DNA of 64,000 nucleotides from a phage. Positions 26,893 through 63,849 of this stretch are shown piece after piece. The stretch is taken from the sequence record NC_135728.1, one strand, 5' to 3'. Both the position numbers and the translations under genes were made by a program. Under the pieces are notes generated by a model. It was not told the origin of the DNA, searched no databases, and saw nothing but the letters and a program-made list of their open reading frames with translations. How positions within the stretch are numbered: the stretch's first letter is position 1; the number at the start of each line of letters is the position of its first letter.

Positions 26893-26931
26893 AAAACAGT
26901 ATAACAAAATAGCCCTCGTGTTAGAGGGCTA
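26893..26931 (-). terminator. hairpin (tagccctcgtgttagagggcta) with U-rich tail on minus strand; attenuator/terminator between terminase and portal
   Basis: 8-bp stem followed on the minus strand by T-rich sequence. Confidence 0.45.
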
Positions 26932-26980
26932 GTATCTCCGATTAATCTATTCTACCACATCTAATTAAGATTGGCAACAC

Positions 26981-28102
26981 TTAGATAAAACGCTTGAACA
27001 TAGAAGGTGATGAGATTGATGGAATCACACAAGGAAGTGCTACCTCCTCTTTCTCCAGGAAATTAATTGCAGAAGCTACACAGTCAGCCCAGTCGTCTTT
27101 TCTGTTAAATGTTGATCTTTCCCCGTTGAATTTTTCAAGTTCGGTCAGAAATGCTTCCAGAGTATCAGGATGGAAACTGGATTTTACAATCCTCACCATC
27201 CCTTGTTGGGCAAGATTGGCAAAAGGTGAGAACCTTGTCAGTTTAGACTTGTTGGAAGGCATTGGGTCTTCTTCAACCCTGAACCCTTCTGCGAGCAAGG
27301 ATCTGGATGAGGTTAAGAACTCACTCTTACCTGCCTGACCAGGGTCCACAGAGAATACGATTATGCAATCATCACCATCAAACTGCGCCTGTTTCCTGAT
27401 GATCACATCTCGTTCACCAGCCTTTTTACAGAACTTGCCTTCCAGACCTGTGGAATACCTCCCGTCATCCACGTTTTCAGGACAATAATCCCCTGACAGG
27501 TAATAAAAGCCGTCGCTATCTTTACTTACCTTAATACTGGCAGTAAAGTCAGGAAATTTATTGCCAGAAGTTCTCTCGGTTCCTGCCTTATCCCATGCCC
27601 TGCAAGATACTGATCCAAGGGGTACTCTATCGGCATCACGAAGGAAAGATCTTTGAAAATAGTTTGCACCCTCAGGCTTTGCAAACCAGTTACCATGGAG
27701 AAGCTGAGCTTTTTCCAGCTCTGGTAGACCTTCGAGGAAAGCAAGGTATTCTGGGTTGTCTCTCAAACAGACAGGATTATCAAATATTGTTGCGCCTATG
27801 AACGAGAATGACAACGGTCTTGGCTTGATCTCTACACCCAGTCCGTTAACCGTGGTGTATTTCTCTATCAACTCTTCCTTAGAGTCTCCCCAAATAAATT
27901 CACCGTCGCGTCGGATAAAATATCTTTTCTTACCACATTTCTCCGGATCTGGATACCCTTCATCGTCCAACCACCATCTAACCAGTTTGGCAAGCATGTG
28001 TTCTGAATCAGGGTTACAGCTGATAACCATCCTTGATGGATACTTTGACTGAGATCGCAGACGAGACATCAGATAGTCTATCTGCTCCCATTCAAATTGT
28101 GT
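26981..28102 (-). CDS. terminase large subunit, exon 2 (nuclease half); 5' boundary approximate
   Basis: Frame continues upstream of the annotated Met (TQFEWEQIDYL-MSRLRS...); contains MVISCNPD motif; different frame from exon 1, reconciled by removing the intron. Confidence 0.75.
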   Translation of the reverse strand, partial: TQFEWEQIDYLMSRLRSQSKYPSRMVISCNPDSEHMLAKLVRWWLDDEGYPDPEKCGKKRYFIRRDGEFIWGDSKEELIEKYTTVNGLGVEIKPRPLSFSFIGATIFDNPVCLRDNPEYLAFLEGLPELEKAQLLHGNWFAKPEGANYFQRSFLRDADRVPLGSVSCRAWDKAGTERTSGNKFPDFTASIKVSKDSDGFYYLSGDYCPENVDDGRYSTGLEGKFCKKAGERDVIIRKQAQFDGDDCIIVFSVDPGQAGKSEFLTSSRSLLAEGFRVEEDPMPSNKSKLTRFSPFANLAQQGMVRIVKSSFHPDTLEAFLTELEKFNGERSTFNRKDDWADCVASAINFLEKEEVALPCVIPSISSPSMFKRFI

Positions 28103-28421
28103 CGTTTATGTTCGGGCAAGGTCGCTAGTCTTGCCCCGCCATTTTCAGGCAGCTGCATGTCTCCATGCAGACCAGACTATATCTTATAAGCGACAACAAC
28201 CGCTTACCCTCCCGTTTCGAATCGCTTGATTCTACGTCTCTCGACTAGTCGTTGAACGTTCATCCTCTCGGATGCTTCGCTGCGGATTATCTAAATTAAC
28301 ACACTGTTACCCTACCTTCGATCTCTCTTCGAAGCCTCTATCATGTTACCATGACAGGTTGGTGGTGTCAATAATAAAGATTTCCCCGCAATTAGGGAGG
28401 TTTTACGAGAGCTGCAAATTA
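28103..28421 (-). ncRNA. group I self-splicing intron (ORF-less, about 319 nt) interrupting the large terminase gene
   Basis: Minus-strand sense contains the four conserved group I core elements: P AATTGCGGGGAAA (plus 28381-28400 region), Q AATCCGCAGC (28279-28288), R GTTCAACGACTAGTC (28243-28257), S AAGATATAGTCTGG (28172-28185); in-frame stop right after the 5' splice site; intron ends in G. Confidence 0.8.
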
Positions 28422-28847
28422 ACCCTCATCGAAGCAAACCATGGTGTACTCAAGCCCCTGATGGTTAAGCTTATCTTGTACATACTCCATGTGGCAGTAT
28501 TTTACAACAGCTCCCTTTTTGCTTCTATCCCACTTACCAGTGTTCGGATCAAACCGTGGAAAAATGAACTTATGATCCTTCTCTCTGAACTTTGGCTTAA
28601 TGTTTTCAGGCAGATCACTATAAATAGCTACTGCTTTAGGCCATAGTCCACCCTCACCTTCCAACTGTGGGGTTGTTCTTCGGAACATAACCACAGAGCT
28701 GTGGGGGTCATCAATAATTTTAAGTGGCATCAACTGCAAGAGGAACGACTTGCCAGACCCTGCGGCACCTCCGATTACCAAAATATCTGCATCGTTTTCT
28801 AGGATCATCTTCTGCTTTTCAGAACACGGTCCGTAAATCTTAGACAT
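28422..28847 (-). CDS. terminase large subunit, exon 1 (ATPase half)
   Basis: Walker A GGAAGSGKS and Walker B VCFDE; ends at ...VCFDEG followed by an intron-borne stop. Confidence 0.8.
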
Positions 28848-29134
28848 TAACCTCTCTCCTTTGGAAACAGTGTTCTAATATAGTCTTGCAAAATGATCAA
28901 TTTAGCTCTATCATTACTACAAGACAGATTATTATCCCTCATAATGCCAGAATTCACCGCATCTGGCGCACCTTTCTTCAAAGGCATAGCTCTAGCAGGT
29001 GGTTTCATGGCACCTTCTGGGGGTTTAACAATCAACCTTCCTACATCTGGAGTGTCAATCCTATATTCTCTCTCAACGCTGGTTGCACACCCACATAATA
29101 ACAAGCACACAATAAACAGTGTAGCAACTCTCAT
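28847..29134 (-). CDS. o-spanin-like outer-membrane lipoprotein (Rz1-like)
   Basis: Signal peptide with lipobox LLCGC, proline-rich mature region (KPPEGAMKPPARAMP); follows and overlaps by 4 nt the i-spanin-like gene. Confidence 0.6.
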   Translation of the reverse strand: MRVATLFIVCLLLCGCATSVEREYRIDTPDVGRLIVKPPEGAMKPPARAMPLKKGAPDAVNSGIMRDNNLSCSNDRAKLIILQDYIRTLFPKERG

Positions 29135-29529
29135 CGATCCTCCTGATTGATACTCTCATTATAAATATCTATAAGCTGATCAGGGAGTGTTGACTTCTTA
29201 CCTTCAGGTGATTGGAGGTAGATAGTCTGCTTTTCTCTACCTGCCCTCTCAGCTATATTTAATTTATCCTGCAGATCAGAAAGAGATTTTTCAAGGTTTT
29301 TAACCTCCTCTGCGTGGCCCATTTTAATTTTGTCGGCCTGCTTTTGTTGCTGATCAAGGATCCGTTCCCACTTTAACTCTGTTGCTGACACACCCTCTTG
29401 GTAGGCATCATTAAGCTTAGAGTTAAACCAATACACGGCCCCAAGATAAGCTGTACCTATAGCCGCTGCAAAAACTAAACCTTTTATGATCCCTCTATAC
29501 CTACTAAGCCATGTTAAACCTGAAATCAT
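29131..29529 (-). CDS. i-spanin-like protein (Rz-like)
   Basis: N-terminal transmembrane segment followed by a charged coiled-coil-like periplasmic domain; paired with a downstream lipoprotein. Confidence 0.6.
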   Translation of the reverse strand: MISGLTWLSRYRGIIKGLVFAAAIGTAYLGAVYWFNSKLNDAYQEGVSATELKWERILDQQQKQADKIKMGHAEEVKNLEKSLSDLQDKLNIAERAGREKQTIYLQSPEGKKSTLPDQLIDIYNESINQEDR

Positions 29530-29544
29530 TTTAAGGCTCCAGAA

Positions 29545-29580
29545 ACGAAAAAACCCCGCAGCTATACAGCTAACGGGGCG
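29545..29580 (-). terminator. rho-independent terminator
   Basis: ccccgcagctatacagctaacgggg hairpin followed on the minus strand by TTTTTTCGTTT. Confidence 0.55.
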
Positions 29581-29634
29581 GGTTAAAATTGAGTAACCTA
29601 AATAGATCGAAACTAACTAAAAGGAGACTAATAC

Positions 29635-29904
29635 TTATCGAGGCACTCGGTGGATGATTCTAACAGTAACTGCATTTTCATTCATCAAGTATGCATCTAC
29701 ATCTCTGTAAATATAAAACTTCTGCTCACTATCAACAACACAAGCTACCGCCCCTTCAGAGTTGTCTTCAAAAAAGACCACCACTGCATCGCAGCTGAGT
29801 TCATGATATGACTCTCGAAGATTTACAGCCAGAGGATTGAAATCGTCACGAAAATCTACAGTATTGGTTGGATTTACACGCTCTACAATTTTAAGTGTAT
29901 ACAT
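29635..29904 (-). CDS. hypothetical protein (89 aa)
   Basis: ORF track. Confidence 0.45.
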   Translation of the reverse strand: MYTLKIVERVNPTNTVDFRDDFNPLAVNLRESYHELSCDAVVVFFEDNSEGAVACVVDSEQKFYIYRDVDAYLMNENAVTVRIIHRVPR

Positions 29905-29950
29905 TTTAAAGGTTCCTTTCGTTTGTATATGTTTAAAGTATAACTAAAGG

Positions 29951-30027
29951 TGGTCTCCACGGAGTGATTCGAACACTCGACCTCCTGATCCCAAATCAGG
30001 CGCTCTACCAAGCTGAGCTACGCGGAG
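29951..30027 (-). tRNA. tRNA-Pro (anticodon UGG)
   Basis: Manual fold: acceptor CTCCGCG/CGTGGAG, D-arm GCTCAGCTTGGTAGAGC, anticodon loop TTTGGGA, T-loop TTCGAAT, encoded CCA. Confidence 0.8.
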
Positions 30028-30038
30028 TATTTATAATT

Positions 30039-30113
30039 TGGTGGCCCTGGGTGGAATTGAACCACCATCTGGCGATTATGAGTCGCTTGCTTGAACCTTC
30101 CAGCTACAGGGCC
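30039..30113 (-). tRNA. tRNA-Met (anticodon CAU; could alternatively be a lysidine-modified Ile2-type)
   Basis: Manual fold: acceptor GGCCCTG/CAGGGCC, anticodon loop CTCATAA, T-arm GGTGGTTCAATTCCACC, encoded CCA. Confidence 0.75.
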
Positions 30114-30114
30114 A

Positions 30115-30190
30115 TGGTGCTGATGGCAGGACTTGAACCTGCAACCTATTGATTACAAATCAATTGCACTGCCAATTGTGCTACATCAGC
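30115..30190 (-). tRNA. tRNA-Thr (anticodon UGU)
   Basis: Manual fold: acceptor GCTGATG/CATCAGC, anticodon stem ATTGA/TCAAT with loop TTTGTAA, T-arm GCAGGTTCAAGTCCTGC, encoded CCA. Confidence 0.85.
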
Positions 30191-30196
30191 AAAAAG

Positions 30197-30294
30197 GTGC
30201 TAGGCGGTGGAATCGAACCACCTATGTATTCAACGACTACCTCGTCTATTTTCAGGATTAAAAATCCTCGCCCTTGCCAAAGGGCTTACCTAGC
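30197..30294 (-). tRNA. atypical tRNA-like gene (about 98 nt; canonical acceptor and T-arm, aberrant anticodon/variable region, CCA not fully encoded)
   Basis: Acceptor GCTAGGT/GCCTAGC and T-arm GGTGG-TTCGATT-CCACC are canonical; only a 4-bp AGGA/TCCT stem with loop TTTTTAA and a ~30-nt region before the T-arm; positions 8-9 are AA. Confidence 0.4.
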
Positions 30295-30392
30295 TCAGTA
30301 TGTTGACCATGTTGCTAGTCGGCGATGACGACTGTAACATTTGATAATCCGGTTCTGCTTCCGGCTTTCGCTTAATTACAAGGTCAACAATG

Positions 30393-30483
30393 TGGCGGAG
30401 AGTAATGGAATCGAACCATCATCGAGTCATCCTCAATGGGACGGTTTTCAAGACCGCTTGAGCACCATTGCTCCCTACCCTCC
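30393..30483 (-). tRNA. tRNA-Ser (anticodon UGA), class II with long variable arm
   Basis: Manual fold: acceptor GGAGGGT/ACTCTCC, anticodon stem GCGGT/ACCGT with loop CTTGAAA, long variable arm, T-loop TTCGATT, encoded CCA. Confidence 0.75.
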
Positions 30484-30598
30484 TTTATAAATTATACTGA
30501 TAATGACACTGATTTTCGAGCAGTTAGTGACTAGTATAAACGACGATAAATATCAATGCCATTATCTGTATTATTTACGCATCTAAAAAATATAAATT

Positions 30599-30685
30599 TG
30601 GTGGGGAGTGGTGGAGTCGAACCACCCGAGTCGCAATGACAATAGATTTACAGTCTACACCGCTACCTCTACGGGATAACTCCCC
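30599..30685 (-). tRNA. tRNA-Tyr (anticodon GUA), class II
   Basis: Manual fold: acceptor GGGGAGT/ACTCCCC, anticodon stem GTAGA/TCTAT with loop CTGTAAA, T-arm GGTGGTTCGACTCCACC, encoded CCA. Confidence 0.8.
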
Positions 30686-30689
30686 AATT

Positions 30690-30764
30690 TGGCACCCCGT
30701 ACTGGACTCGAACCAGTGTCAACGGCTTAGAAGGCCGCTGCTTTATCCACTAAGCTAACAGGGC
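30690..30764 (-). tRNA. tRNA-Arg (anticodon UCU)
   Basis: Manual fold: D-arm GCTTAGTGGATAAAGC, anticodon stem GCGGC/GCCGT with loop CTTCTAA, T-arm ACTGGTTCGAGTCCAGT, encoded CCA. Confidence 0.8.
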
Positions 30765-30822
30765 ACTGGGTGGCTTTCTTTTACACCTTAGCCGCCAGAA
30801 AAGGTGGGAGACCATGTTTACA

Positions 30823-30852
30823 ATATTACACTGTTAAGCAAAGTTTGTCAAG
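30823..30852 (-). promoter_or_regulatory. sigma70-like promoter upstream of the tRNA cluster
   Basis: Minus-strand TTGACA (plus 30847-30852), 17-18 bp spacer, TAATAT (plus 30823-30828). Confidence 0.5.
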
Positions 30853-30860
30853 AAAATATT

Positions 30861-31199
30861 TTAGCTATTGCTAACAGGCTGTATTTCTGTAGTAAATGGC
30901 ATAAAAGGTGCTGGTTTTTCAGCCTCTTCTACTACCACCTCTTCCTCTTCACCAAACATCTCATCATATTCTTCCTGCATTCGGTCTGCCTTATCAAGAA
31001 CATACTCTGCAATGCTTTGACGAATATTTTGTTTGGTTTTCGGGTCCAACATCAGCTCTCTTAAAACTTTGTGAGCTTCTGGAACCATCGCTATGAAAGA
31101 TTCCTTCATATCAAGGATGTTCTTCTCTAGCTGAATGGCGTTGGACTCCTCTTTCAGAGGTCTGCCTCTACGGCGACGCTTTTTAGTTGTATCCGCCAT
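30861..31199 (-). CDS. small AT-hook-like DNA-binding protein with acidic C-terminal tail (112 aa)
   Basis: Start chosen at internal Met (MADTTKKRRRRGRPLK) with GGAGG RBS 6 nt upstream and its own promoter; RGRP AT-hook motif; C-terminus EEYDEMFGEEEEVVVEEAE. Confidence 0.55.
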   Translation of the reverse strand: MADTTKKRRRRGRPLKEESNAIQLEKNILDMKESFIAMVPEAHKVLRELMLDPKTKQNIRQSIAEYVLDKADRMQEEYDEMFGEEEEVVVEEAEKPAPFMPFTTEIQPVSNS

Positions 31200-31227
31200 G
31201 TTTCCTCCATTATCACGTGATAGGTGG

Positions 31228-31256
31228 ATTTTATCATAGCAAATACTGATTGTCAA
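31228..31256 (-). promoter_or_regulatory. sigma70-like promoter for the AT-hook protein gene
   Basis: Minus-strand TTGACA, 17-bp spacer, TAAAAT, followed by GGAGG and ATG. Confidence 0.55.
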
Positions 31257-31545
31257 GTTCGCCGCAGGGTGGTATTCCCTGCGACTTGTCCAGCGTCCTG
31301 GACCAGCAAGACCCAACAAGTGGGTTACCAGAGGCCTATTACCCGCGCTTCGGCCCGACCTTGTTACAGGTTGGCTGGGGTCACATCGTCATGTGCTGGC
31401 TGCCCCTACCATTTTAAGTGTGGTGCACTATCAAGCCCTCTGAGGGGAACTCAGCTTTCTCCGAACCCTGTTTCAAAGCATCCGGAGATAAAGCCATCAA
31501 ATTCATCTTTAAATTGGATATTCATCATGATACACGAAAACAACC

Positions 31546-38180: not shown

Positions 38181-39463
38181 TGCATCAAATCAAAACAACA
38201 CTGTACGCACTGAACAAAGATGGCAGCTACCAACAGTGGAAAGTATTCACTGATGGCGAAAAGGTTATCGTAGAGTTTGGCAAGCTTGACGGTAAATTGC
38301 AGTACAAAGAGACGGTATGCACACCTAAGAACGTAGGTCGTGCCAACGAGACTACAGCTGAGCAACAGGCCGAGCTTGAGGCTATCAGCAAGTGGGAAAA
38401 ACAAGTCCGCCTGGGGTATGTTGAAAACATGGAAGATTGCGAGCAGGGTGTTGATCTTTTACCCATGCTGGTGCATGACTACCTGAAGCGTGGCAAGGCA
38501 CTTAAATTACCTTGCTGGATCTTGCGTAAGTTAGATGGTCTTCGTCTGCTTGTTGTTTTCCAAAATGGTGAGCCTAAATTTATTTCCCGTGGTAATAAGT
38601 CCTACCCTATTCAAGGAAAGCTTTTAGAGCAACTTCGTTCTTTCCATTCTACCACTAGGATTAAACAACTTGATGGGGAACTATACATTCATGGTCTTCC
38701 TTTGCAGAAAATAGTGTCTCTTGCTAAACGGTGGCGCACACAGGAAGAGATTCAGGCCGAGATCGATAAAGACTATGAGGCAGATAAAAAACGCCGTCAT
38801 GCAGCAATTAAGGCAGGCTTATCAACATACAAAAACTTCAACAAGGTAGATATTCCTGTCGATGTTGAGCCTGTTCGTGATGATTTGCGTTACGGCGGGT
38901 ACTGTAGCTACGATCTGGAGTATCACATTTTTGATATTCCTAGCGACAAGGTGTGGTGGGATCCAGAAACAGAGTCTGGGCGCTGCAAGGATCTTATGGA
39001 TGCAGAGGATACCGTTACCACTCTGATGCTTGATCATATCAAGGTTGTTGACGCAGAGCTTGCGTACACAGTTGATCATTGCGAAGAATCTGTTGGTATA
39101 TTCATGTCCGAAGGATATGAAGGTACTATCATGCGTAATTTCTGCGGTAAATATGAGTATGGTCAGCGAACATCTGAAGCATTGAAATGGAAAAAGTTCA
39201 ACGACGCAGAGGTGAAAGTTATTGACGTTGAGAAAGATAAGAATGATGAAGGTGTTCTTATCTGTGTTGACAAGGAAGGTGTTGTTGTTAAAATGAAGAT
39301 GAAAGGCACGCACGAGGAGCGTAGCTATGACAGGATGCAGGAAATGATCGGCAAGTTTGTCACCTTCAAATACCAAGCAAGGACAGAAGACAACAACTAC
39401 CAATTCCCTGTCGGTATCTGCGTCCGAAATGTTAACCCAGACACTTGGGAGGTGCTTGAATGA
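38180..39463 (+). CDS. ATP-dependent DNA ligase
   Basis: Nucleotidyl-transferase motifs I (RKLDGLR), III (LDGELYIHG), IV (EGYEGTIMR), V (LKWKKF). Confidence 0.7.
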   Translation: MHQIKTTLYALNKDGSYQQWKVFTDGEKVIVEFGKLDGKLQYKETVCTPKNVGRANETTAEQQAELEAISKWEKQVRLGYVENMEDCEQGVDLLPMLVHDYLKRGKALKLPCWILRKLDGLRLLVVFQNGEPKFISRGNKSYPIQGKLLEQLRSFHSTTRIKQLDGELYIHGLPLQKIVSLAKRWRTQEEIQAEIDKDYEADKKRRHAAIKAGLSTYKNFNKVDIPVDVEPVRDDLRYGGYCSYDLEYHIFDIPSDKVWWDPETESGRCKDLMDAEDTVTTLMLDHIKVVDAELAYTVDHCEESVGIFMSEGYEGTIMRNFCGKYEYGQRTSEALKWKKFNDAEVKVIDVEKDKNDEGVLICVDKEGVVVKMKMKGTHEERSYDRMQEMIGKFVTFKYQARTEDNNYQFPVGICVRNVNPDTWEVLE

Positions 39464-39586
39464 TGTAGGAAGGTTCAGCAGGTAACGGTAGCCAATTGAA
39501 TGATGGTTTTCAATCGGCACCTACATAACCACACTGTGTAGTGTTGTTGATTGTGTTAGTTATGAGTAAACTGGAGAGTATGAAAA

Positions 39587-40057
39587 ATGAAACTTGATAA
39601 AAATGTTCAACGAAAAGCTTTCTTGGATATGATCGCATATTCGGAAGGCACAGATAATGGTAGGCAACCCACTAAGGATCGGGGATACGATGTCATAGTT
39701 GGTGGCAAGCTGTTTAGCGATTACAGCAAGCATCCAGGTGTGTACGTTAAGCTAAATGCTAAACTTACCTCCTCCGCTGCTGGTCGTTACCAGGTTTTGG
39801 AGAAGTTTGCTAAACACTACATGGAACAGTTAGGATTGCCAGATTTTGGCCCTGCCAGTCAGGACAAGATTGCGTTGCAACTGATCCGTGAGTGCAAGGC
39901 TCTCGCCGACATTGACGAAGGGCGTATCCACGAGGCTATCCATAAATGCCGTTCCCGCTGGGCTTCGTTACCTGGTGCTGGATATGGTCAGCATGAACAG
40001 AAGATCGAGAAGTTGATCGAGGTGTTTAAAAAGGCAGGCGGTGTTGTCCTTGATTGA
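39587..40057 (+). CDS. endolysin, lambda R-type lytic transglycosylase
   Basis: Near-colinear similarity to phage lambda R as recalled (QRKAFLDM..SEGTDNGRQ..GYDVIVGG..AGRYQ..WASLPGAGYGQ). Confidence 0.9.
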   Translation: MKLDKNVQRKAFLDMIAYSEGTDNGRQPTKDRGYDVIVGGKLFSDYSKHPGVYVKLNAKLTSSAAGRYQVLEKFAKHYMEQLGLPDFGPASQDKIALQLIRECKALADIDEGRIHEAIHKCRSRWASLPGAGYGQHEQKIEKLIEVFKKAGGVVLD

Positions 40058-40060
40058 TCA

Positions 40061-40089
40061 TTGACATAACCACAAGGACGTGGTATTGT
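40061..40089 (+). promoter_or_regulatory. sigma70-like promoter with palindromic spacer (CCACAAGGACGTGG)
   Basis: TTGACA, 17-bp spacer, TATTGT; spacer palindrome recurs at 55792-55822. Confidence 0.5.
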
Positions 40090-40120
40090 TACCTCATAAA
40101 ATGTTTAGGAGGGCTTAACC

Positions 40121-40327
40121 ATGAAAGATTTTCTGTTGGCAATTTTGTTCATGGCAGCATGTCTGGCCTGTGGTGTCGTGTTTGCAGGTGAAACAGCGTA
40201 TCTTGTCGATGTATATCGGGACAATGGTAAACGTATTTGCCTTTATGAGACAAGTCAAGGTGAGCTCTACGAGCTTGTGAAACAAGGCGAGGCTGGATCT
40301 TGTCCTCGCACCCATTTCTTTGAATGA
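40121..40327 (+). CDS. small lipoprotein (68 aa)
   Basis: Signal peptide with lipobox-like LACG; RBS GGAGGG upstream. Confidence 0.5.
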   Translation: MKDFLLAILFMAACLACGVVFAGETAYLVDVYRDNGKRICLYETSQGELYELVKQGEAGSCPRTHFFE

Positions 40328-40336
40328 GGAGAATAC

Positions 40337-40801
40337 GTGGAAGACGGACGTTTAATGAAGTCTGAACGCAGGCTTATTGTGCAACTGATCCCAGAAACAG
40401 CTTGGTATAATAACCTCCGAAACGCTGTGAAGAAGAGTGAGTGGGATAAGATCCGTAAGAAGTGCTACAGAGAAGCCAACTACACTTGCGAGGTGTGCGG
40501 AGGTAAAGGCAGCAAACATCCAGTGGAGTGTCATGAACTTTACACTTTCGAAGAAGGAGTGATCCGTCTTGTCGGACTGATAGCGTTGTGCCCAGACTGT
40601 CACACATCGGTGCATCCTGGGTTAGCAAATATCCGTGGAAAGTATGCTCAGGCAGTTAATCAGTTGGCTAAGGTGAATAAGATCACCAAGGGTATGGCAG
40701 AGGCGTATTACCGAGACTGCTTTGCAGAGTGGCGTGAGCTTAGTAAAGTTCCAGAATGGAAGACTGACTTTTCGTGGATAGAGGGTTACCTTGATGGCTA
40801 A
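40337..40801 (+). CDS. zinc-binding HNH-like protein (154 aa), possible endonuclease
   Basis: CEVCGG ... HPVECHE ... CPDCH arrangement of Cys/His pairs. Confidence 0.4.
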   Translation: MEDGRLMKSERRLIVQLIPETAWYNNLRNAVKKSEWDKIRKKCYREANYTCEVCGGKGSKHPVECHELYTFEEGVIRLVGLIALCPDCHTSVHPGLANIRGKYAQAVNQLAKVNKITKGMAEAYYRDCFAEWRELSKVPEWKTDFSWIEGYLDG

Positions 40802-41084
40802 GAAACCTGTAAAAGAGAAATTTGATAAGACAGCTTTTGTATTCGATACACCTTTGGACGATATCATCAGAGGTATGCAAGCCTTGTATCGGAAGTCTGA
40901 ATCTGAGCAGCTGTCGGAATCAGAGCTTTACTGGTTGGGTTGGTGGGAGCTTAATCTACCTAAAGCTGAAAGCTCTGATCTAAAAACCGTTAAAACGTGT
41001 GCCCAAGAAAATGCTGCACTTGGAATTTACCACAAAAGAAAAAGATCAACAAAAAGCTCTCCAAGAAAGACTAAAAAGTCTTGA
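40791..41084 (+). CDS. hypothetical protein (97 aa), basic C-terminus
   Basis: ORF track. Confidence 0.4.
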   Translation: MMAKKPVKEKFDKTAFVFDTPLDDIIRGMQALYRKSESEQLSESELYWLGWWELNLPKAESSDLKTVKTCAQENAALGIYHKRKRSTKSSPRKTKKS

Positions 41085-41111
41085 CAAATGAGTCTCTGAT
41101 CTGATATTATC
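41081..41111 (+). promoter_or_regulatory. sigma70-like promoter
   Basis: TTGACA (41081-41086), 17-19 bp spacer, ATATTA/TATTAT; followed by RBS AGGAGA and ATG at 41144. Confidence 0.5.
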
Positions 41112-60274: not shown

Positions 60275-60555
60275 AAATGAGTGCTAAGGACAAATTACAC
60301 CAACTGGCGCTAAAACGTCCTGTAACGCTTCCTGACGAGCTTAACTCTATTTATGATGCGATTGTAGGGGAGATACAAAATAAAGCGTTAGCAGGCTTTC
60401 TGGGATGCGGATTTTCGATAAATCTACCCTCGCATCTCTCAGATTACTTCCCGCATATTGTTGGGGATTTGAGGGCAGGAGGTCTGCAGGTAGATGTTGT
60501 TGGCATCTCTCCAGAGAAAAATAACACGGTTGCCTACTTGACAGTAACTTGGTAG
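60271..60555 (+). CDS. hypothetical protein (start adjusted to ATGA overlap with upstream stop)
   Basis: ORF track 60241-60555; internal Met at 60271 overlaps the methyltransferase stop. Confidence 0.4.
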   Translation: MKMSAKDKLHQLALKRPVTLPDELNSIYDAIVGEIQNKALAGFLGCGFSINLPSHLSDYFPHIVGDLRAGGLQVDVVGISPEKNNTVAYLTVTW

Positions 60556-60566
60556 TTGTGTATTGT
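60538..60566 (+). promoter_or_regulatory. sigma70-like promoter
   Basis: TTGACA (60538-60543), 17-bp spacer, TATTGT. Confidence 0.45.
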
Positions 60567-60829
60567 TGTTATCAACAAGGGGGTCATTTATGTACAAGTC
60601 ATTTTCAATTTACTCAAGACAGGCGAAACATTACACAGAGATTCTAATCACTCAGAAAAAATCTGTAGAAGGTGAGTGGGAATATCATCATAAAATGTTG
60701 CGTCCAGACTGGGTTTTTGATAGGCTTATTGCTATGATCCCTCTTGGAGAAGTATACCCTCTGACAGGTCATAGGGATGCTTGGGATTTAATTGATTACA
60801 TAGATTCATTTAAGGAGCCTAGTGTATGA
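60563..60829 (+). CDS. hypothetical protein (88 aa)
   Basis: ORF track. Confidence 0.4.
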   Translation: MLLSTRGSFMYKSFSIYSRQAKHYTEILITQKKSVEGEWEYHHKMLRPDWVFDRLIAMIPLGEVYPLTGHRDAWDLIDYIDSFKEPSV

Positions 60830-61224
60830 AGATTGAGATCACTAAAGAAGGTAAGAAAGTGTCTGGCGATTATGCAACAGTAATTCGGGATGTAATGTTC
60901 GAAGTAACCCAGACTGGTACGTCTAAGGTTGGTCAAACGGTAAGTGTGCAAGGTAATATTGCCGCAGGTGAAAAGATAATCATCGTGATCAAAGGACAAG
61001 ACCCTGTGGAAGGAACAGTGGGCCGAGGAGGCTACCTGTGTATTTCTGAAGAACCTCGTATGCTGGTTGCTGATAACTCCACAGGTAAAAAGCGGGTATG
61101 TAACACGGACGAGGTGATGATTATCTATCCAGTCAACCCAGATGATCCGGCAACATGGATTGTGGGAAATGAAATCTTCTCTTTAGAAGAGTTATCCTTC
61201 CCAGCTCCGCGCTCTGTTCAGTAA
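60826..61224 (+). CDS. hypothetical protein (132 aa)
   Basis: ORF track; start-stop overlap. Confidence 0.45.
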   Translation: MKIEITKEGKKVSGDYATVIRDVMFEVTQTGTSKVGQTVSVQGNIAAGEKIIIVIKGQDPVEGTVGRGGYLCISEEPRMLVADNSTGKKRVCNTDEVMIIYPVNPDDPATWIVGNEIFSLEELSFPAPRSVQ

Positions 61225-61263
61225 TAATTTATCTTACCAGGGACGGTAGAAGTAGGAGGTAGC

Positions 61264-61497
61264 ATGAAAGTTAAATTTCTTACAGATTTAGGGTACCCTT
61301 CCTTGGTTGACTGTGTTGGTAAAATTGTGGAAGCAAAACGGCTATCTGCAAACGAGAATGTTGTCATGGTTAAGGGAAAAGATTTATTAGCTGCAGGTGC
61401 AGAGTCTGGCAGGGTCTCTCCTGACTATACGTATTACCTGTCTTTAAGTAATCTACCAGAACGAGGCGGCAAAGGCCTTGAAGTTGTGGAGGAGTGA
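61264..61497 (+). CDS. hypothetical protein (77 aa)
   Basis: ORF track; RBS AGGAGG. Confidence 0.45.
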   Translation: MKVKFLTDLGYPSLVDCVGKIVEAKRLSANENVVMVKGKDLLAAGAESGRVSPDYTYYLSLSNLPERGGKGLEVVEE

Positions 61498-62027
61498 CAG
61501 GTATGCTTCTGATTAACTGGGAAGACCTCTATGGGGACAAAGACCCTGTTGCGTTTGTTGATCGTAGATGGAGATATACTGAAGAACAACTGGCTGCAAA
61601 AAATTTAACTGCAAAACGCAGAAAGATCATCCAGTGCAAGTATAAATACGCACAGTTTGCTGCAAAAGTGTCTCCCCAAATCGAGAGCTTTGTGCTTAAA
61701 TTGTATGACGAGTACCTCAAATTCAAACTGGATTTTGTACAGGTATACCGTGCACAGATACGCCCAGATACCAGCATTTGTAGATGGAAGGTTGTTTGTG
61801 ACGGTAAAGATTTGCCACTCAGCTTGACAATTGAGCAGCGTTGGGGGTATCATGAGTGCGGTCTGTATGAGACTTGGGATGTCATTGTAGATCCTGCTAA
61901 GTACCTGAACACAGAGGAGCTGGAATATATCAATAAGGTTATTCTCGATATGTTTTTCAGATACACCTGTGAAAACTCTGAGAAAGAACGGGATAATTTT
62001 CTTGACACCATCAGCAACCATCTGTAG
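61494..62027 (+). CDS. hypothetical protein (177 aa)
   Basis: ORF track. Confidence 0.45.
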   Translation: MTGMLLINWEDLYGDKDPVAFVDRRWRYTEEQLAAKNLTAKRRKIIQCKYKYAQFAAKVSPQIESFVLKLYDEYLKFKLDFVQVYRAQIRPDTSICRWKVVCDGKDLPLSLTIEQRWGYHECGLYETWDVIVDPAKYLNTEELEYINKVILDMFFRYTCENSEKERDNFLDTISNHL

Positions 62028-62057
62028 TATACAATTTAACCTACAAAGGGAGGGCTA

Positions 62058-62294
62058 ATGAGTATAAATGTTGTGCTAATAGGTTACCTGGTAATAGCAG
62101 TTATAACAGCGGTATTCTTGACAGGTATATGCATCGTGTCTAGACGAAGGGTGAAGTTTGATGATTTTATCACCATCATCACTGCTGCACCTTTTTGGCC
62201 TATTGTTATCTTCATCGTAATAATGTGCCTAGTTGATTACTACAAGAATATCCGTAAGGAGAAAAAGGAGAGTAGGGATGGAGACCGCGCCTAA
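62058..62294 (+). CDS. small membrane protein with two predicted transmembrane segments (holin candidate)
   Basis: Two hydrophobic stretches (VVLIGYLVIAVITAVFLTGICIV and ITIITAAPFWPIVIFIVIMCLV) and charged C-terminus. Confidence 0.4.
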   Translation: MSINVVLIGYLVIAVITAVFLTGICIVSRRRVKFDDFITIITAAPFWPIVIFIVIMCLVDYYKNIRKEKKESRDGDRA

Positions 62295-62430
62295 AACTGT
62301 TTATACTGTTCTTAAAGAGATTGCGTTCTACGCAGATCTTAGCCAGGCACCTTTATGGGAAAAGAGCATGTATTTAAAATGGTGCGTTAATTTATGGAGA
62401 CCTTCCAGTGTTTCAAGCCATGTTTATTGA
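62278..62430 (+). CDS. hypothetical small protein (50 aa)
   Basis: Internal Met of ORF 62233-62430 preceded by strong RBS (AAGGAGAGTAGGG). Confidence 0.3.
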   Translation: METAPKTVYTVLKEIAFYADLSQAPLWEKSMYLKWCVNLWRPSSVSSHVY

Positions 62431-62513
62431 GATGCTATCTGGGGTATTGTTACTGGTAGCCATCTTAGGTGGTGCAGTTCTGATGTATAACTATCTTGAA
62501 AAAGGAGACAGCA

Positions 62514-62699
62514 ATGGCAAAAAATAAATCTTTAGAGCAGGCTGAAAACCTTCTCCACGAGCTAGTAAAGGAGTGGAAAGTTGAATACTCAGATTTTAAT
62601 GCACGAGAGGGTGAAGATTATTGGCCTACGGAGCGCTCAGAGGGCGAATGGTATCAAGATTTTATAGAGTGGTTATATCAGACGTGTGATGAGGGGTGA
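62514..62699 (+). CDS. hypothetical protein (61 aa; start at second Met with RBS)
   Basis: ORF track 62496-62699; AAGGAGA RBS precedes the ATG at 62514. Confidence 0.4.
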   Translation: MAKNKSLEQAENLLHELVKEWKVEYSDFNAREGEDYWPTERSEGEWYQDFIEWLYQTCDEG

Positions 62700-63157
62700 C
62701 GATGTTTGTTAAATATGTAAAAACGTGCCTCAACAGTCTTGGCAGAGAGCATTGGTACACCTTACTTGAAAAAGGAGAAATTTTAACAAAATCTGGAAAG
62801 ATAACTTTGATACCCTTGGACGATAAAGACCCGTCACTCCTTGTCATAGATGATTACGTTACAGGTGTGTCGTACGAGGTCTCTGTGGAGAGGTTAATAC
62901 GCAGATCTGGAGGTCCTTATGACCGAAGAGAGTATGTTTTCGATTCTGTTACAGAGAAGGAAGATCCGTCTCTAATGTTCAGGATGGTAATCAGAGATAT
63001 GAGGTCATCTATAGACAGGATCGTAAAGGACATTAAGGAGCCTTTTAGGGTAAAAGTTAAGAAGTTTTTTGATTCTAAGATTAACATACTTGCCGTTGTG
63101 CTAGGCGTAATTCAACTTCTGTTAATTTTGCACTATCTTGAACTGTTGTTTAAGTAG
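62696..63157 (+). CDS. hypothetical protein (153 aa), C-terminal hydrophobic segment
   Basis: ORF track. Confidence 0.45.
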   Translation: MTMFVKYVKTCLNSLGREHWYTLLEKGEILTKSGKITLIPLDDKDPSLLVIDDYVTGVSYEVSVERLIRRSGGPYDRREYVFDSVTEKEDPSLMFRMVIRDMRSSIDRIVKDIKEPFRVKVKKFFDSKINILAVVLGVIQLLLILHYLELLFK

Positions 63158-63217
63158 TGTGCAATAAGGCACAAAGGATGTGCCATAACTAAATAAACTA
63201 AGAAAGAGGTAGAGAGA

Positions 63218-63565
63218 ATGCCAAAGATTAAATCGATATTAATGTGGGTAGCTGTTGTGGCTTTTGTAGGATACTGGACTTGGGAAACTGAATTAAAAGA
63301 TATCGGATATACCAGTCTTGAGAACAAGGCGTGCATTGGCATAACCGATGCATTCAGGCAAAATGCTATGGATCACGAATGTGTCGATGCAGACATAGAT
63401 GAGAAACTGTCTAAGGACAAAGACTTCTACCACGGGTATGCTTTGCTTGATAGTGGAGACACTGTAGAGTTCTGGTCGTGGTTCCGTAAAGATGGAACAA
63501 TAAAAACAGCAGTAAAGATCTCTAACAAAGAGTTAATGCTGTTGCAGCAGAAGGAGGCTCAATGA
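63218..63565 (+). CDS. hypothetical protein (115 aa) with N-terminal transmembrane/signal-anchor segment
   Basis: ORF track; hydrophobic N-terminus ILMWVAVVAFVGYW. Confidence 0.45.
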   Translation: MPKIKSILMWVAVVAFVGYWTWETELKDIGYTSLENKACIGITDAFRQNAMDHECVDADIDEKLSKDKDFYHGYALLDSGDTVEFWSWFRKDGTIKTAVKISNKELMLLQQKEAQ

Positions 63566-63849
63566 TCTGGATATCCTATGCTGATGGCACCATGCTGTAT
63601 ACTGCAGGTACCAGATATGAGGTTCAGGAGAACGATAAAAAATTTATCGTAAGAACATTTGACAAGGACGACAACCTTTTGCTAGAATTAACTTACAAGG
63701 TTGGGGATGTATCTAGCATCCAGTTGGATTGCGGTCATAAAGATAACCCACTCAAGAAACCTGGGGTAGGTAAAGCTTCAGAAAAACGCCTGTCTCGTAT
63801 TGCAGAAAGCGTTTCTGCACAAAAATCTAAGAAGGGGACTAGAAAATGA
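63562..63849 (+). CDS. hypothetical protein (95 aa)
   Basis: ORF track. Confidence 0.4.
   Translation: MIWISYADGTMLYTAGTRYEVQENDKKFIVRTFDKDDNLLLELTYKVGDVSSIQLDCGHKDNPLKKPGVGKASEKRLSRIAESVSAQKSKKGTRK

Follow-up and report, generated by a model that had tools for sequence, protein, structure and literature searches.

A probable two-component spanin encoded upstream of the large terminase gene and away from the endolysin gene in a 64-kb stretch of phage DNA

The 64,000-nucleotide (nt) stretch of phage DNA in record NC_135728.1, hereafter the window, carries on its minus strand two adjacent genes, located immediately upstream of the gene for the large terminase subunit (TerL), that very probably encode a two-component spanin (an i-spanin and an o-spanin), made late in infection to disrupt or fuse the outer membrane and unlinked to the endolysin gene or to any holin gene. 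Judging from its sequence, the source phage is an rV5-like coliphage, a myovirus of the genus Vequintavirus; along its whole length, the 4.5-kb stretch around the spanin locus (26900–31400) shared 98% identity with Pr121LW (vB_EcoM-Pr121LW), Mangalyan, rV5/V5, and many others. The features of the locus are as follows:

29548–29579, minus strand: terminator-like hairpin, GCCCCGU.AGCU-GUAU-AGCUGCGGGGU followed by U6; from the fold of 29525–29634 (minus)
29131–29529, minus strand: putative i-spanin, Rz-like, 132 amino acids (aa), equivalent to rV5 gp068/ORF67; phrog_4297, transmembrane domain (TMD), AlphaFold2 (AF2) model
28847–29134, minus strand: putative o-spanin, Rz1-like outer-membrane lipoprotein, 95 aa, equivalent to rV5 gp067/ORF66; phrog_1267, lipobox
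28423–28847, minus strand: TerL exon 1; Walker A motif GGAAGSGKS, alignment against the TerL of phage EmilHeitz, which has no intron
28104–28422, minus strand: group I intron in TerL; Rfam RF00028, boundaries from the same alignment
26981–28103, minus strand: TerL exon 2, nuclease domain; same alignment

The product of the upstream gene matched along its whole length the PHROG family phrog_4297, annotated as "Rz-like spanin" (E = 3e-48). A hydropathy scan placed in it a single N-terminal TMD at about residues 14–36, with R10, R12, and K16 on its N-side, which corresponds to the N-in/C-out topology of i-spanins, and its length falls within the 100–200 aa expected for them. In the single-sequence AF2 model (pLDDT 74.7), a long helix (residues 5–104) was followed by a low-confidence linker (105–114, with P108 and G110) and by a second helix (115–127), and this predicted helix–hinge–helix layout is the one expected for the periplasmic helices of i-spanins. 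The protein has no Cys, and it showed 25–29% identity when aligned with its homologues from phages Mydo and Av-05.

The product of the downstream gene matched a second PHROG family of "Rz-like spanin" proteins (phrog_1267, E = 7e-22). Its signal peptide ends in a lipobox, L13-C14-G15-C16, that fits the PROSITE-type pattern and has Ala at position +2, so that both the Cys for signal peptidase II and a residue other than Asp at +2, compatible with sorting to the outer membrane, are present. The mature protein would have 80 aa, 10% of them Pro, and one periplasmic Cys (C72), through which the pair agrees with the rule that two-component spanins have a Cys available for a homotypic intermolecular disulfide, as found in 507 of 528 such systems (criteria of Summer 2007 and Kongari 2018). 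The motifs L-x-G-C and KPP..AM.PP were invariant between this o-spanin and its homologues in Mydo (Mydovirus) and Av-05 (Avunavirus), at about 30–37% identity. The family was found by tblastn in 191 phage records, all of them from large phages resembling Vequintavirinae and infecting enterobacterial hosts (Escherichia, Klebsiella, Salmonella, Cronobacter, Erwinia, and Proteus), and because it keeps the L-x-G-C and PP motifs down to 30–39% identity, the spanin pattern does not seem to be due to chance. The first-pass annotation, which had described an Rz-like transmembrane coiled-coil protein and an Rz1-like lipoprotein upstream of the terminase gene, is thus borne out by the family matches, the TMD, the lipobox, and the proline content.

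The arrangement of these genes points in the same direction. The i-spanin gene's stop codon overlaps the start codon of the o-spanin gene by 4 nt (ATGA, 29131–29134), as fits the adjacency expected of a spanin pair, with a GGAGG ribosome-binding site for the latter inside the former, and the o-spanin stop overlaps in turn the TerL start (TAATG) at 28847. Given these overlaps, the i-spanin, the o-spanin, and TerL would be translationally coupled. The order i-spanin, o-spanin, TerL is common to rV5, Mangalyan, EmilHeitz, Mydo, and Av-05, and in Mydo the run that it opens sits downstream of a tRNA cluster. In the window, the spanin pair constitutes the first open reading frames (ORFs) of a run that continues into TerL, portal, head, and tail genes. 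The records of the relatives label the two proteins as "I-spanin" and "O-spanin" in Mangalyan and EmilHeitz, and as "Rz-like spanin" in the RefSeq entry of rV5 (gp068/gp067). From these sequence features, the family membership, and the conserved synteny, we infer an envelope localisation, a lytic function, and a late expression of the pair.

Four points weigh against this assignment. Neither protein matched the Pfam families Rz or Rz1 at E ≤ 0.1, and homology to tested spanins is therefore not demonstrable by sequence; the pair belongs to PHROG and SpaninDB families of its own. Neither Mydo nor Av-05 conserves the sole periplasmic Cys of the o-spanin (C72). The hairpin at 29548–29579 lies immediately upstream of the i-spanin gene, which complicates the assignment of a promoter to the spanin–TerL run. 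Finally, no experimental test of rV5-type spanins was found in the sources read, which are bioinformatic. As a separate observation, the Mydo spanin pair seems to be without any periplasmic Cys, and would join the approximately 4% of two-component spanins that have none.

The mechanism proposed for this pair follows established spanin biology, from work of the Young laboratory. The helical i-spanin would be anchored in the inner membrane and the o-spanin would be a lipoprotein of the outer membrane, both together spanning the periplasm. Through the ATGA and TAATG coupling to TerL, they would be made late, alongside packaging and virion proteins, and would assemble across the periplasm during late expression, kept inactive by the peptidoglycan mesh until the wall was degraded. 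A soluble transglycosylase of the lambda R type, encoded 10 kb off in an oppositely oriented DNA-metabolism unit, would then be freed by a holin, and once it had destroyed the peptidoglycan, lysis would end with the disruption or fusion of the outer membrane by the spanin complex. Since such complexes are inert while caged by intact peptidoglycan, their genes would need no linkage to those of the endolysin or the holin; with their activity gated by peptidoglycan integrity, the spanins would only have to be late genes, for which a place in the packaging and structural run would suffice.

The muralytic enzyme of this scheme, together with the gene and the promoter that follow it, is found on the opposite strand:

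39587–40057, plus strand: endolysin of the lambda R type, lytic transglycosylase, equivalent to rV5 Gp89/ORF89; PDB 1AM7/3D3D, phrog_90
40061–40089, plus strand: sigma-70-like promoter TTGACA-17-TATTGT, TG-extended (rV5 P90), directly upstream of the next gene; promoter scan and rV5 annotation
40121–40327, plus strand: 68-aa protein, probably secreted, equivalent to rV5 ORF90 ("putative membrane protein"); phrog_4641, of unknown function

The similarity of the endolysin to lambda lysozyme extends over its full length (1AM7, E = 3.4e-56, residues 4–154; about 4e-56 for PDB 1AM7/3D3D), with the SEGTDNG stretch and its catalytic Glu aligned ("ysEGTDNG"), and it matched phrog_90 with E = 3e-56. 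No Pfam match was obtained at E ≤ 0.1; the rV5 paper (Kropinski 2013) reported pfam00959 for its lysin. The hydropathy scan detected in it neither a TMD nor an N-terminal hydrophobic segment, and no signal or signal-arrest-release (SAR) sequence, so the enzyme would be soluble and holin-dependent. Its gene is separated by 10,058 bp from the start of the i-spanin gene and lies between those for a DNA ligase and an HNH endonuclease, and was present in 126 phage records. The earlier description of a lambda-R-type endolysin some 10 kb away from a terminase-side spanin pair, with the lysis genes dispersed, stands on these data and agrees with the published annotation of rV5-like phages.

Outside the window, rV5-like genomes encode a SleB-type cell-wall hydrolase (MZ501062, 9009–9509) that matched Pfam Hydrolase_2 with E = 2e-19 and has a typical cleavable signal peptide; in MZ501062 its gene is found just upstream of rIIA/rIIB. 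It could be a second muralytic enzyme, Sec-exported and holin-independent.

Dispersed lysis genes with spanins beside the terminase gene are already described for this phage group, with the exception of the lipoprotein label given at first pass to the 40121–40327 product. The SpaninDB survey (Kongari 2018) catalogued "rv5" i-spanin and o-spanin families in the architecture class "separated". The paper on phage CB7 (2020) described the large terminase of CB7, rV5, and PVP-SE1 as adjoined by spanins outside any lysis cassette, and noted the same placement in the podoviruses SP6 and VP4. In the rV5 paper (Kropinski 2013), Gp89 was designated as the lysin, and the putative holin gp129 was placed apart from it, as in T4. 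Since rV5-, PVP-SE1-, and CB7-like phages, along with some podoviruses, are documented to have this layout, the significance of the present assignment is mostly that of a correct annotation. Cocktails for biocontrol and therapy include rV5-like phages, and the identity of their holin bears on the control of lysis timing.

The candidate for this last function within the window is located far from both loci:

62002–62030, plus strand: sigma-70-like promoter (TTGACA-17-TAGTAT) immediately preceding the next ORF
62058–62294, plus strand: 78-aa protein with two TMDs (hydropathy), putative holin, equivalent to rV5 gp129/ORF129; phrog_10061, of unknown function

No real gene with a TMD flanks either the spanin locus or the endolysin gene in the hydropathy scan of the window, in keeping with the first reading that no holin-like protein is adjacent to them. 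When all the ORFs of the window were scanned, and most hits in the structural region had been dismissed as antisense or out-of-frame ORFs, the gp129-like ORF was the only real gene with two predicted TMDs (residues 3–25 and 38–59, approximately), and it is still, as had been put forward, the best candidate in the window. That gp129 is the holin releasing the lambda-R-type endolysin, with the three lysis functions unlinked in a T4-like manner, is possible, if doubtful. The same proposal was made for rV5 by Kropinski (2013) on the same grounds, as gp129 was the only two-TMD protein in a scan of the proteome by TMHMM and Phobius. The annotators of the BASEL collection, however, picked as "putative holin" another two-TMD protein of 123 aa, encoded outside the window (MZ501062, 88483–88854), which matched no holin family; the announcements of the rV5-like phages LL12 (which names the endolysin, the i-spanin, and the o-spanin) and Gotham, and likewise the paper on KPP-1, a relative within Vequintavirinae, report that no holin was identified. 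The small size of gp129, its two TMDs, and its charged C-terminal tail (7 K/R and 5 D/E in the last 19 residues) are those of a class II holin, whereas its charged RRRVK loop suggests, by the positive-inside rule, an N-out/C-out topology unlike that of this class, and in Pfam and PHROGs it matched only phrog_10061 and no holin family. Its distribution in 115 records, all from Vequintavirus and always with the upstream neighbour ORF128, roughly matches the 126 records of the lambda-R endolysin, and no homologues were found beside lysis genes in other phages. Regarding its context, the ORF adjoins neither the endolysin nor the spanins and sits in a block of small genes rich in promoters (15 sigma-70-like matches on the plus strand of 60500–63700, where 7.7 ± 2.7 would be expected), which, together with the promoter directly upstream of it, suggests an early-type setting. 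In addition, about 20 small proteins with TMDs are found among the small annotated coding sequences of the full EmilHeitz genome, so the pool of holin candidates is wide, and a Pfam and PHROGs scan of the plausible small membrane proteins of the window and of the whole EmilHeitz genome did not reveal any holin family.

The 60500–63700 region is a run of small ORFs on the plus strand, several of them encoding tiny single-TMD peptides, such as the 39-aa product of 62408–62527 (phrog_15251). The neighbour ORF128 (61494–62027, plus strand, 177 aa) was present in exactly the same 115 phage records as gp129, and both split into two lineages about 50–55% identical (rV5-type and FV3/JES2013-type), unlike the near-invariant 68-aa ORF. 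In the BASEL annotation, ORF128 is a "putative glycosidase", which would allow a mini lysis cassette with gp129. This label could not be reproduced, as no PDB sequence match was obtained at E ≤ 1; ORF128 belonged to only two protein clusters among 5.8 billion proteins, and its AF2 model (pLDDT 52) was too poor for a fold search.

Two other proteins encoded outside the window came up in the search for holins. The XhlA match (E = 0.016) of a coiled-coil protein was discarded as compositional. The tail-fibre module of rV5-like phages encodes a protein of 104 aa (MZ501062, 38551–38865) in which a TMD at the N-terminus is combined with a charged tail of the coiled-coil type; it is named as a lysis gene in no annotation or paper examined, and is a plausible alternative candidate of the holin type.

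The 68-aa ORF directly downstream of the endolysin gene had been labelled as a small lipoprotein, and this label did not hold up. Its product has an N-terminal hydrophobic signal, and the PROSITE-style lipobox pattern was matched at Cys14 (FMAAC). Its only distant homologues, from Serratia phage ChuuTotoro and Salmonella phage SSBI34 (35–38% identity), lack Cys14 as well as Cys17. What the three proteins have in common is a site for signal peptidase I of the AxA| form (VFA|G, ASA|S, and AHA|G) and two Cys of the mature part (C40/C61). On this comparison, cleavage at VFA|G would probably leave a 46-aa periplasmic protein that contains the two conserved Cys, that is, a small, secreted, and disulfide-bonded protein that would be made early, with a possible periplasmic role in superinfection exclusion or another early function. 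Calling it a secreted protein avoids its mis-annotation as a lipoprotein.

A combined reading, in which the rV5-like holin belongs to no described family and is a protein other than gp129, given the early-type promoter of the latter (for example, the 104-aa protein with a TMD and a coiled coil), while the 46-aa secreted protein acts as a periplasmic lysis-timing factor, loosely like T4 RI in these rIIA/rIIB-carrying phages, seems unlikely. It is also improbable that the 68-aa ORF encodes a lipoprotein, whether with the role of a second o-spanin or with that of a Cor-like superinfection-exclusion lipoprotein, as was first suggested. Beyond its hydrophobic signal, the lipobox pattern, and the position next to the endolysin, this suggestion could draw on the near-invariance of the ORF across Vequintavirus (at least 95% identity in 119 of 123 records). 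However, the adjacency to the endolysin was found only in Vequintavirus records of the phage collection, and in ChuuTotoro and SSBI34, where the ligase-to-exonuclease module likewise contains the homologue, no endolysin is annotated near it; the loss of the lipobox Cys in these homologues also speaks against it, as do a sigma-70-like promoter belonging to the ORF itself, its lack of proline richness, and the absence of an i-spanin partner.

As for the terminase-side genes, the reading in which the pair is not a spanin and has a packaging-related or another envelope role, such as replacing an unannotated small terminase subunit (TerS), is hardly credible: although no TerS appears in the annotations examined for these phages, the pair occupies the usual TerS position in translational coupling to TerL, and the i-spanin resembles a TerS in size and is of the coiled-coil type, neither the N-terminal TMD nor the conserved lipobox of the partner can be reconciled with a TerS that binds DNA in the cytoplasm, which led us to reject this identity on the membrane signals, both proteins match PHROG spanin families, and spanins next to the large terminase have been reported in podoviruses, SP6 and VP4 among them.

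The preferred assignment of the pair as a spanin leaves several features of its surroundings to be described. Upstream of the i-spanin gene lies only the following ORF and, beyond it, seven tRNA genes:

29635–29904, minus strand: hypothetical protein of 89 aa, equivalent to rV5 gp069; phrog_8729, of unknown function, no TMD

Lacking a TMD, its product is not a holin candidate. The hairpin between this ORF and the i-spanin gene was missed by a simple terminator scan and detected by folding; it ends 18 nt ahead of the i-spanin ATG, with a GGAG ribosome-binding site after it, and resembles a terminator for the tRNA/gp069 unit. The 18-nt gap has no room for a promoter, and the spanin–TerL run would be transcribed by read-through or from an upstream late promoter. 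Among the tRNA genes, the one at 30196–30294 (minus strand) is 99 nt long, has a 4-base anticodon (atcc) according to ARAGORN, and reached only 31 bits with the Rfam tRNA model; it is labelled as tRNA-Lys or "tRNA-OTHER" in relatives, and may be a pseudo-tRNA or contain an insertion or an intron. Where the rV5-like phages have only the 89-aa ORF, Mydovirus and Avunavirus have one of about 450–485 aa that is not annotated and shares 4 nt with the start of the i-spanin gene (625–2082 of the Mydo locus and 724–2079 of the Av-05 locus).

Downstream of the pair, the TerL intron matched Rfam RF00028 with 79.4 bits (E = 1e-19) at 28153–28457 (minus), and no homing-endonuclease ORF was found in the intron of the window (28104–28422). 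TerL introns are published for rV5 (Kropinski 2013) and for LL12 (in its announcement). The TerL gene has one intron without HNH here, is split into three pieces with an HNH endonuclease gene in between in rV5, and is uninterrupted in EmilHeitz; the intron content is therefore polymorphic within the genus.

With respect to the phage records themselves, about 18 GenBank entries named "Campylobacter phage" (MG0656xx) were 95–98% identical to this coliphage at every region tested (26900–31400 and 39400–41100). These entries would seem to be rV5-like coliphages, either mislabelled or present as contaminants.

Compared with known systems, the pair shares with lambda Rz/Rz1 the topology signals and, according to the model, the helix–hinge–helix layout of the i-spanin, whereas no Pfam Rz/Rz1 match was obtained and the genes are not embedded in each other. 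Lambda R and the endolysin can be aligned over residues 4–154, with SEGTDNG retained in the latter, but the window contains neither an S-R-Rz cassette nor a lambda S-like holin. T4, with its lysis genes e, t, and pseT.3/pseT.2, is the textbook unlinked case and resembles the present phage in the separation of the endolysin, holin, and spanin genes, in an i-spanin without Cys and a disulfide capacity residing in the o-spanin, and in the presence of rIIA and rIIB homologues in the rV5-like genome. In contrast, no sequence similarity was detected between the spanins of both systems, PseT.2 needs two Cys and the o-spanin described here has only one, the T4 spanins are not beside the terminase gene, and the T4 holin T is known, whereas that of the rV5 type is known only as candidates. 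The podoviruses SP6 and VP4 do have, like this phage, spanins directly upstream of TerL, within the late packaging region and not in a lysis cassette, although the SP6/VP4/T7 lineage differs from a myovirus of about 137 kb. The T7 spanins 18.5/18.7 are found between genes 18 and 19; unlike in the pair studied here, 18.7 lies embedded within 18.5, and the identified holin 17.5 is found near them. The closest counterparts are rV5 gp068/gp067 and the "rv5" families (Kongari 2018), which are the same proteins, with about 96% identity in the o-spanin, and show the same order, the same 4-nt overlap, and the same position upstream of TerL, with no difference of substance, only the intron and HNH content of TerL varying.

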